A stretch of DNA of 64,000 bases, from the NCBI RefSeq assembly GCF_044704955.1, contig NC_091980.1, positions 129,208,001-129,272,000 of the forward strand. Direction: 5' to 3'. How positions within the stretch are numbered: the stretch's first letter is position 1; every line of letters begins with the position of its first letter. This DNA comes from Pristiophorus japonicus (taxonomy: Eukaryota). Below the pieces are notes generated by a model that saw only the letters and a program-made list of their open reading frames with translations, made no database searches and was not told the origin of the DNA. This document shows, piece after piece, positions 24,984 through 28,129 of the stretch. Made by a program: the position numbers and the translations under genes.

Positions 24984-27534
24984 ATGGCTTCTCAAGTGCG
25001 TCAGAACTACCACCAGGATTGTGAGGATGCTGTCAACAAGCAGCTCAACATGGAGCTATATTCCTCCTACGTTTATCTCTCTATGGTGAGTTTTGTGTTT
25101 TTTTGCCACTTCACAATGGAGACTATGTAATGTGAATTTATGAAATCCCGTGCTGTACCCTGCCCATCTATTTCTCTCTGTTGCCCCCCAGCCCAATCTA
25201 TGCAGTGAACTCACTTTTAAAGCTATAATGCGAAATAATTTATCTTCCTGTGTACTCATTAACAAACTGCCTCTGTTCCTTGCAGCAGCTGTACCATACT
25301 CTGATATTGAATCTTGATGATTCTTTCCTGGGCTCTTGAGCTTGAAGTTTATCTTGAATGCATTCTGCACTCAATGTGAGGAATTCAGAATTTGTTTCCT
25401 CATTCTAACTCACTCCATGGACTTTCCTTACATTGCTGGTTCAATGGGTGATGTCATAAACAGCTCAGCCATTTAGGAGGGCAGTCAGGAAGTATTCTTT
25501 CCCACCAGTGTGGTGGAAATCTGAAACGCTTTCTTTCCCAGCCATCCCTCACCTCCACAGGGGGAGGATGGGAAGAAAGTGTTACAAATGCTTGCTTCCC
25601 TCCTGTTGTTTTTAAACTCTTAATCTTAAATACCCATTTGTTTCCTTTCTGTCTTTCCTCTCTGTCTTTGCTTTATTGGTGGTAAAGGCTTCATCAATTG
25701 TCTGTACTCAGTGGCCTCTCCCTTAACCCCTGTGAACTTCACCAATCACCTCACCATTGAGGGGTTTTCATAACTTTTATTCCATAGCACCTGGTTCTCA
25801 AACGTTTTGATGGTGCTAAATTCATGCTGCTTGTGGTAGTTTAATTCTTTGGCATGACTGGAGCTAGTAAAACTCATTTTGTTTTTCTCTTTTGTATGAT
25901 TATGAATTCTGCACTGTGGCTAGATCTCTACTTTAATGGGGTTGCTCGGTGTTCCAATACTGCCCTTCAACTGGCCTGAACACACTAGATCTGTGTCAAT
26001 AAACAATGATTATTAGAGTGTGCTAATGGTAACCAGGATATTAATCTTGTTAGGGTTCCTTCACTAATTTTGAGTGGTAAATTAGAACATTAATCTTATC
26101 AAATTTGAATTGGTGATCATGAAATGATGCAACAGAGGAGGCCATTCAGTCCATTGTCTGTCGCTGACTGTTTGGTGGAGCGATGCAACTCGTCCACTCT
26201 GTTCCCATTGCCTTGCAAATCACTAAGTTTCCCTTTTTGCTGGAGGTGAGATTATCCATTATCTTTACCAGGTTAGTTGTGTATGGGCTAGTTTCCATAA
26301 CTACATACAAGTTCAATGAGGCTGAGCCCTTGAAAGCAAGAGCAATGAGCTTGGCTTTATGTACAATGCCCATGATAATTGGTCTTCCTTGCAATAAACT
26401 ACTCTTCTGATCTCTCTGCAGTCCTTCTACTTTGACCGTGATGATGTTGCCCTGCGTCACTTTGCTGAGTTCTTCAAAGAGCAGTCACATGAGGAACGAG
26501 AGCATGCTGAGAAACTGATGGAATTTCAGAATCGACGTGGGGGCCGGATTATCTTGGCGGACGTCAAGGTTTGGCTCAATAAACGAGAGGGGCCTTCTGT
26601 CTGGATCCCCTGAGACTGATTGTTCCCAATACATTCTCTAAAGCGGTTGGTTCCAATTTATAGCACAGAAACCAGCCATTTGGACAAACTGGTCTATGCT
26701 GGTGATCAGGCTCCAGACAACATCTCCCACCTTGCTTTATCTTGCAACATATCCTTTTATTCCTTTTTCCCACATGTACTTATTAAGCTCCCCCTTAAAT
26801 ACATCTGTGCTATTCACCTGATCAATTTGACTCCAGTGGTTGATGGCTTAATGCAGTAATTCTCTATTCAACACACTGATTCATGGTATCCTAGAATTCT
26901 GATTGCATTTTTTTTTCAGCCCTAATTCCTTCAATACATTGTAAGTGAACATGAGAATTTCCTCTTCAGAAACCAGAGCAGGATGAGTGGAGCAATGGTC
27001 TGGAGGTGATGCAGAGAGCTCTGCAGATGGAGAAGAATGTGAACCAGAGTCTGCTGGATCTGCACAAACTCTCCACTGAGAGGACAGATCCTCATGTAAG
27101 TTCCTAATGCTTTTAATGTGGGCATTTGGCTAAGTTGGAGGTGGTGGAACCTTGCTGTCCTTGAATCTAATTTAAAAAGATCTCTGTTTTTTTTGGGGTA
27201 GATATTGTAAATGTGTCCCTGTGATCCCAACACCTCTTGTACAGCAAGTTTTCATCAATTTCAATTGCACCACTTAACTATCCTCCCAGTTCAAAAGGAT
27301 TAAAATCCAAACTCTTCAGGGGTAACCTCCAATGTTCCTTGATATCTGCTACTGGCCATAACTCATTTCCCTCTTTTCCTTCAGTTGTGTGACTTCCTGA
27401 AGACCCACTACTTGGATGAACAAGTGAAGATGATCAAGAAGCTTGGAGATCACATCACCAACCTGAAGAGACTGGGAGCCCCTGAGAATGGTCTGGGAGA
27501 GTACTTGTTTGACAAGCACACCTTGGGAGAGTGA
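24984..27534 (+). CDS. fth1: Ferritin heavy/middle-type subunit, copy C; intact 4-exon gene, 174 aa
   Basis: Exons 24984-25085, 26422-26568, 26970-27095, 27385-27534, all GT-AG. Differs from A by I21L, I82V, S119T and two silent changes (by eye). AATAAA 27642-27647. Confidence 0.93.
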
Positions 27535-28129
27535 CAGAAGCTTGTGTTTATATAATTGAGACTCTGACCTACTTTTGACTTAGTACAGGCTAAGAGACCT
27601 GGGCTCTTGATGTGAAATGTAATTTACAGTATTGGACTGTAAATAAACTGTCCAATATTGGATTGGTTTTGTCTCTTTGCAAGTTTGATTGGTTGCTTAT
27701 TTTCTATTTATCATAACTTGTTATAGGCCCAATATTTCACTTGGCTATGCAATAGTCTTGCCCTGGGATTCAGTCATAGAATGCTAACAGCACAGGAGGA
27801 CATTCAGCTGGTCGAGCCTGTGCTGGCTCTCAGCAAGAACACTTCAGCTAGTTCCACTCCCCTGCACTTTCCCTGTAGCCCTGCAATTTTTTTCCCTTCA
27901 GGTGCTTGTCGAATTCCATGATTCAATCTACCACTACCAGCCTCTCAGGCAGTGCAGTACAGATATTAACCACTCCCTGCATAAAAGCTTTCCTCAAGTC
28001 AGCTGTGGTTCTTCTGCCAATTGCCTTAAATCTGTCTGCTGGTTGTCTACCCTTCTGCAGGTGGGAACAGTCCTATAATTTTTTTTTTTTGCTGTGGTAA
28101 TTTCAAGATATTGACATGTATATTCATAA

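Follow-up and report, generated by a model that had tools for sequence, protein, structure and literature searches.

A lysine at three-fold channel position 134 in paired sawshark ferritin genes is probably a tolerated substitution within a large gene array

Results

Ferritin copies in the window

The window, a stretch of 64,000 nucleotides from Pristiophorus japonicus (C4:129208001-129272000; genome searched, 5.9 Gb), holds the ferritin copies A to F (Table 1). Intact genes are present at A, C and F, and the remaining three copies (B, D and E) are broken. Exon 2 of both A and C scored above the cut-off for the ferritin domain PF00210 (C4:129217291 and C4:129234416), and the four-exon layout of these two genes is a trait of the vertebrate H/M ferritin family. 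The initial annotation had described A and C as a palindromic pair. This was confirmed, as they lie in an inverted duplication with arms of about 4.8 kb that are 99.1% identical; 3 amino-acid and 2 silent changes separate the two genes.

The A-B-C palindrome is present three times, the block being repeated at an offset of about 260.7-260.8 kb (C4 ~129.05-129.50 Mb; 129.68-129.70 Mb). Identity across the 260-kb duplication drops from 99.98% at one end to 98.9% on the side of C, with a part at 99.9-100%, and the repeated block would be either a very recent duplication or a partly uncollapsed haplotype.

Array genes are preceded by inverted CCAAT boxes (CTGATTGG) and a TATA-like box, the latter kept in all 10 intact Lys copies. 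The element CTGATTGG is similar to the Y-box of germ-cell promoters, a likeness that would fit ovary expression. Over the 9 sources scanned, no iron-response element was found in the window or in the array stretches included, and IRE_I appeared only at an intact gene on C19 and at an intronless copy on C20. A contig from run X23, which carries the same species label, has exons 3 and 4 spliced together at a GT..AG junction and shows nine differences relative to C, so that splicing takes place in one or more array-type paralogs other than C. Among the short contigs of four runs compared at 90% likeness, which carry little weight on this point, no variant was listed at 27400, and those of X23 leave 27548-27700 uncovered.

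Table 1. Features of the window (positions count from the first nucleotide of the window)
Feature	Position	Strand	Description
Left arm of inverted duplication	6807..11611		carries A
Copy A	8320..10874	-	intact four-exon gene, 174 codons, canonical splice sites
Copy A exons	10874-10773, 9434-9288, 8886-8761, 8469-8320	-
Lys codon AAG, copy A	8454-8452	-	K134
Copy B	14499..15660	+	broken fragment: exon 3 doubled, exon 4 frameshifted; exons 1-2 not found
Right arm of inverted duplication	24247..29047		carries C
Copy C upstream region	24830..24983	+	pair of CCAAT-type boxes plus TATA-like box, shared with other array copies
Copy C	24984..27534	+	intact four-exon ferritin gene, 174 aa, canonical splice sites, ferroxidase ligands intact
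Copy C exons	24984-25085, 26422-26568, 26970-27095, 27385-27534	+
Copy C exon 4	27385..27534	+	ends in LGE
Lys codon AAG, copy C	27400..27402	+	array residue 131 = human H E134 = frog M E130, three-fold channel
Copy D	33205..37744	+	broken: exon-2 acceptor TG, exon-2 stop, exon-3 frameshift; tail LGGE
Copy E	45754..51548	-	broken: exon 1 in two pieces about 3.4 kb apart, exon-4 stop; Asp at 134
Copy F	55189..59479	-	intact; E134; tail LGESD

Lysine at position 134 and the C-terminal tail

The AAG (Lys) codon that had been noticed in A and C was found in both genes, and the window reads LCDFLE in B, D and F and FCDFLD in E, as previously stated. The numbering was verified with the database protein P0008, identical to array copy C4:130281019, which aligns over its full length and free of gaps with human H ferritin and frog M ferritin (PDB 1mfr). 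Array residue 131 thus corresponds to E134 of the human H-chain (135 with Met) and to E130 of frog M, and A and C carry Lys in place of the Glu of this conserved three-fold channel position.

We considered the possibility that the codon was not genuine. A sequencing error is very unlikely, because 12 array copies share the codon, their flanks being as much as 14% apart. The chance that the Lys codon or the multiplicity of Lys copies arose in the assembly is negligible in our estimation: the part of the 260-kb duplication that is 99.9-100% identical might be an uncollapsed haplotype, in which case there would be fewer copies, but the codon occurs within four different sequence contexts that are 8-14% apart, the three A/C pairs mutually differ by 0.4-1.9%, and E134K also occurs in other species.

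The shorter C-terminus of A and C was confirmed to go with a G-run two nucleotides shorter, GGG against GGGGG in B and in the nearest Glu relative, C4:129531460. Both proteins end in LGE, two residues before F. The ending LGESD with which this had been contrasted belongs, within the window, to F only; B would read LGESH, D ends in LGGE and E has its stop upstream. The short tail also proved to be an ordinary feature rather than a notable one. Twenty-five tail types occur among the intact copies, of which 50/93 end in LGESD; LGE arose separately in the broken copy C4:128047724; proteins of other sharks often end earlier (LS in 47 rows, LN in 10, LH in 10); and several solved H-chain constructs stop at array residue 173. 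Loss of the Ser-Asp tail is likely to be without effect. The usual stop, GAC TGA, reads GAC AGA in A and C (27535-27545) and GAT GGA in C4:129531460, which runs on to a longer tail.

The ferritin array

The region C4 127.8-133.4 Mb, an array of about 5.6 Mb, holds 137 of the 150 Pfam ferritin matches that were scored out of 1033 candidates, and a pattern for exon 4 gave 327 matches genome-wide. We annotated the window together with 168 of 189 regions, the 21 omitted regions being mostly near-duplicates; the Lys copies were purposely made part of this sample, which covers the lower half of the array more densely. It yielded 182 gene units, with 93 intact and 66 broken on C4, a further 17 there that the regions covered only in part, and 6 on C19. 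Since ferritin exons were present in 5 of 19 blind 10-kb tiles and absent at 127.6-127.7 and 133.5-133.7 Mb, copy density is uneven. Eleven UniRef proteins under the name Pristiophorus japonicus ferritin match intact array copies letter for letter, and none of the 252 database proteins retrieved has the sequence of A or C. Large ferritin clusters also appear for other sharks in the database cluster listings.

A smaller second cluster lies on C19, where an intact divergent gene (C19:93140000-93149999) with an iron-response element stands beside broken copies, one of which carries K134. The intact gene is likely a somatic iron-regulated ferritin. Intronless copies were observed on C3 (216.27 Mb), C20 (22.40 Mb), C6, C16 and C1; those on C3 and C20 cover the whole Pfam domain without stops, the C20 copy retaining its iron-response element, and may be live retrogenes.

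Families and origins of the K134 copies

On C4, K134 was found in 12 copies, which all lie in the interval 129.07-129.87 Mb; one broken C19 copy carries it too. In the pattern search, 11/11 codon-134 matches with a non-G first base read AAG; a looser Lys pattern gave 86 matches against 36 in the control, and only the 13 inside ferritin clusters were counted. The A/C family consists of six copies in three inverted pairs, all intact and all ending in LGE. A second family comprises three intact K134 copies ending in LGESD, one of them identical to the K134 database protein P0005. The intact copy C4:129183863 and its duplicate C4:129444569 both read LKTN and share three of four exons without a difference, and C4:129862680 is broken. 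Ten of the 11 classified Lys copies on C4 are intact versus 93/159 overall, though these Lys copies represent only 3-4 lineages. Two intact copies have further replacements, C4:129183863 with E134K, E140K and H136N and C4:129586341 with E134K and E62Q, the latter being the only replacement of E62 seen among the 93 intact copies.

In a tree of 147 C4 coding sequences from which codon 134 was excluded, and whose deep support is weak, K134 needs 4 changes. The number of origins on C4 falls to 3 if family 2 and C4:129862680 share one on the basis of flanking sequence; the two are 8% apart over exon 4 and flanks, and their lineage may be fairly old. A and C, on the other hand, belong to one recent lineage copied six times, and their lysines are not two independent events. 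The six A/C-type copies would go back to a single mutated gene that was recently duplicated, both in inverted orientation and segmentally. We also considered a single K134 origin spread by gene conversion, which is disfavored in that the A/C family is 3.5% and C4:129183863 1.6% away from Glu copies, versus 8-14% from other Lys lineages; a very short conversion tract is possible.

Constraint on the array and on the A/C lineage

Selection was judged from pairwise counts, column counts and label changes. The pN/pS ratio was 0.28 in 43 disjoint nearest intact pairs and 0.48 in 26 broken pairs, and the array as a whole is under purifying selection. Residues E27, Y34, E64, E107, H118, C130, D131 and Q141 are invariant in 93/93 intact C4 copies, and the two D131N copies that emerged from the pattern search are both broken. 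Changes among the intact copies do affect E134, E140 and E57, and never D131 or most ferroxidase ligands. Position H71 (array codon 68) switches between Glu, Gln and Lys, with Lys needing 11 changes, and Y29C (array codon 26) is present in 24/93 intact copies; both sites vary far more than E134.

The ferroxidase site, assumed to be intact in A and C, is indeed so: E27, Y34, E62, H65, E107 and Q141 are all in place, with no departure in any A/C-family copy. L-type ferritins have Lys at 62 in place of the ferroxidase Glu; A and C have E62. The inner-surface nucleation and transit carboxylates E57, E61, E64 and E140 are likewise unchanged in the A/C family. Measured against the column yardstick, A/C shows 17 fixed differences, 13 silent and 4 non-silent; three of the latter are widely shared and only E134K is rare. 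From its nearest Glu relative, C4:129531460, A/C is separated by 6 amino-acid and 16 silent differences. The A/C lineage thus looks conserved, not decaying as a whole.

Within the Lys families, N/S was 6/4, versus 51/26 in young Glu pairs (p=0.73; small numbers). A second hit along the iron path was present in 2/10 intact Lys copies and in 3/83 others (Fisher p=0.09), a hint of relaxation after E134K. The suggestion of early decay in the initial annotation is therefore borne out in part, in that site 134 is relaxed, but it does not extend to the A/C lineage as a whole.

Recurrence of E134K in the array and in other elasmobranchs

The 3-4 origins were set against changes of the same kind elsewhere in the array. 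Silent non-CpG G>A sites underwent 2.31 changes on average, with 10/55 reaching at least 4, whereas non-silent non-CpG G>A sites averaged 1.44, with 4/75 reaching at least 4. A Poisson distribution with the silent mean gives P(>=4)=0.20 and P(>=3)=0.41. E134K is therefore commoner than most amino-acid changes and no commoner than a neutral change, though weak deep support in both trees and possible distortion by gene conversion bear on these counts.

The survey of paralogs in other species showed that Lys at 134 does recur, in 7/206 non-sawshark proteins covering the site (4 retrieved with a Lys-bearing query, 3 from cluster listings), corresponding to six other elasmobranch species. An unselected view was provided by 110 rows of the cluster listings, the K62 clade, the end-of-list sawshark-only rows and one mislabelled row being omitted. 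In these, E134K was present in 3/104, E53K in 5/100, E62K in 4/101 and E64K in 2/101, and changes at D131 and E140 in 0/104 each.

In a quick tree of 198 of the 252 proteins, with weak support, 8 Lys rows need 8 changes. Lys134 in other sharks and a ray is confined to scattered end branches, and there is no old Lys clade. Copies cluster mainly with others of their species or order, the pattern that birth-and-death turnover would produce. We examined whether the LKRH motif of Stegostoma, Chiloscyllium and Pristis marks a conserved Lys clade; R135 is a common feature of the array proteins of carpet sharks, and the Lys rows fail to form a group. A separate, L-like shark clade has Lys at ferroxidase position 62 (P0119 and P0163-P0176, with P0063, P0218, P0220 and P0221 listed alongside), and E62K or E62N also arises within the array proteins of Heptranchias.

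With a recurrence not above that of silent G>A sites and Lys forming no old clade across species, there is no indication that a tuning subunit has been selected for. Several observations run against a tolerated change: few amino-acid changes of its class recur as often as E134K (4/75 sites reach at least 4), and in other sharks 134 is the only varying core channel or ferroxidase site besides E62. The high share of intact Lys copies, the TATA-like box that the 10 intact ones retain and the possible age of the family 2 lineage weigh in the same direction.

Consequences for the three-fold channel

In ferritin, residues of three subunits meet at the three-fold axis of the homopolymer. D131 and E134 had been taken to be needed for Fe2+ entry, and a review calls both frog channel residues crucial (PMC10114856). 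In human mitochondrial ferritin, D131A abolished rapid oxidation, whereas E134A was mild, with mineralisation of 80 vs 79 uM/min and a binding constant of 1.7 vs 3.0 (PMC12022971). The D129A/E132A double mutant of sea-cucumber ferritin oxidizes iron more slowly (PMC9785301). The site is a three-fold channel position and D131 is important, but E134 is not strictly needed.

Lys at 134 is likely to be more disruptive than Ala. A cationic channel favoring anion passage, as had been proposed, is overstated all the same. A and C keep D131, H118 and C130 and have Glu at residue 123; the pore is not simply cationic because the Asp131 ring is kept, and a Lys ring lies beside it. The A/C pore would be neutralised rather than cationic: the K134 ring is predicted to cancel part of the negative gradient and to slow Fe2+ entry in those channels that hold Lys.

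How many channels these would be can be estimated from 12/327 copies, or 11 of about 190 estimated intact ones, assuming even co-expression and random assembly. There would be 0.9-1.4 Lys chains per 24-mer, with 11-16% of channels containing one Lys and <=0.02% containing three. Such dilution would buffer the effect of K134 and make the defect nearly invisible to selection. Local duplication would then have multiplied the K134 gene, copying broken neighbours such as B along with it.

Discussion

These findings suggest that E134K in A and C is probably a tolerated and mildly harmful point mutation that would be buffered among about 300 copies, rather than a selected new function. We favor this reading because 3-4 origins fall inside what silent G>A changes show, Lys forms no old clade and E134A is mild.

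Alternatively, E134K might inactivate iron entry and so be the first step of pseudogenisation, the Lys copies being released to decay. Two of three intact Lys lineages do have a second hit in the iron path (E140K and H136N in C4:129183863, E62Q in C4:129586341), by copy in 2/10 against 3/83 (p=0.09); two further Lys copies are broken, as are 66/159 of the classified C4 copies, and Lys occurs in other species without an old clade. Yet six of six A/C copies are intact and free of a second hit, and N/S in the Lys families is not above that in young Glu pairs, and we find this course of events unlikely. Selection might instead have kept K134 subunits as attenuators, probably in the ovary, which would slow Fe2+ entry or release in mixed cages and tune iron storage. 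The repeated origin of the change (3-4 times on C4, once on C19 and in six other elasmobranch species), the intact ferroxidase centre and promoter-like region of A and C, the six-fold amplification of A/C and the ovary-specific expression of a Greenland shark cluster (10.1101/2024.09.09.611499) could all be read in this way. The recurrence is, however, inside the neutral range, no Lys clade has been conserved, the amplification extended to broken Glu neighbours such as B and is not specific to the Lys gene, and at 4-6% of subunits few channels would be affected.

We therefore regard such attenuators as quite unlikely, and extend the same low credence to the broader proposition that ovary-type arrays of sharks repeatedly make and keep K134 subunits with a functional ferroxidase centre, which would assemble together with normal chains and throttle the entry or release of iron, a gene-dosage dial for egg iron storage. 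The tuning or blocking of iron flux in mixed 24-mers by A/C, as put forward in the initial annotation, accordingly finds no sign of selection in its favor. An anion-passing cationic pore, or a role other than storage, is very improbable. Three lysines would indeed meet at the axis of a homopolymer, but the retained D131, H118 and C130 and the Glu at 123 speak against such a pore, all-Lys channels would make up <=0.02% in mixed cages, and the ferroxidase and nucleation residues are unchanged, E134K being the only rare non-silent change among the 17 fixed differences.

As a tolerated point change in a redundant family whose expansion has already been reported, the substitution matters little as it stands. 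If Lys were a selected throttle, it would represent a natural tuning of ferritin iron flux through pore charge and would help to explain why hundreds of ferritin genes are kept in sharks. The array is in any case modestly useful as a natural mutagenesis screen of ferritin.

In the literature searched, no paper joining 'ferritin' and 'E134K' was found. E134K is, as far as that search reaches, a natural channel variant not found in print, inside an already reported gene expansion. The Greenland shark preprint counts 155 FTL and 179 FTH1 copies; most lie in three clusters that the white shark has as well, the largest of which, at about 4 Mb, shows ovary-specific expression, and >85% of copies are full-length (10.1101/2024.09.09.611499). 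The present cluster is likewise multi-megabase with more than 100 copies, spanning about 5.6 Mb in a genome with 327 exon-4 matches. The share of full-length copies compares with 93/159 classified copies having an intact frame here, by different criteria. The section of the preprint on the ferritin expansion makes no mention of channel variants, and the UniRef entries for Pristiophorus japonicus ferritins, which bear automatic names, do not remark on the channel residue.

A and C belong to the same family as the vertebrate H/M-type ferritins (human H, frog M), with which they share the ferroxidase ligands E27, Y34, E62, H65, E107 and Q141 and the channel residue D131, and from which they differ by Lys at 134 and by a window devoid of an iron-response element. 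Engineered mutants (D131A, E134A, E140A; D129A/E132A) alter the same channel, though by Ala in homopolymers, unlike the natural Lys of A and C. The array and the published mutants give the same ranking, with D131 above E134.
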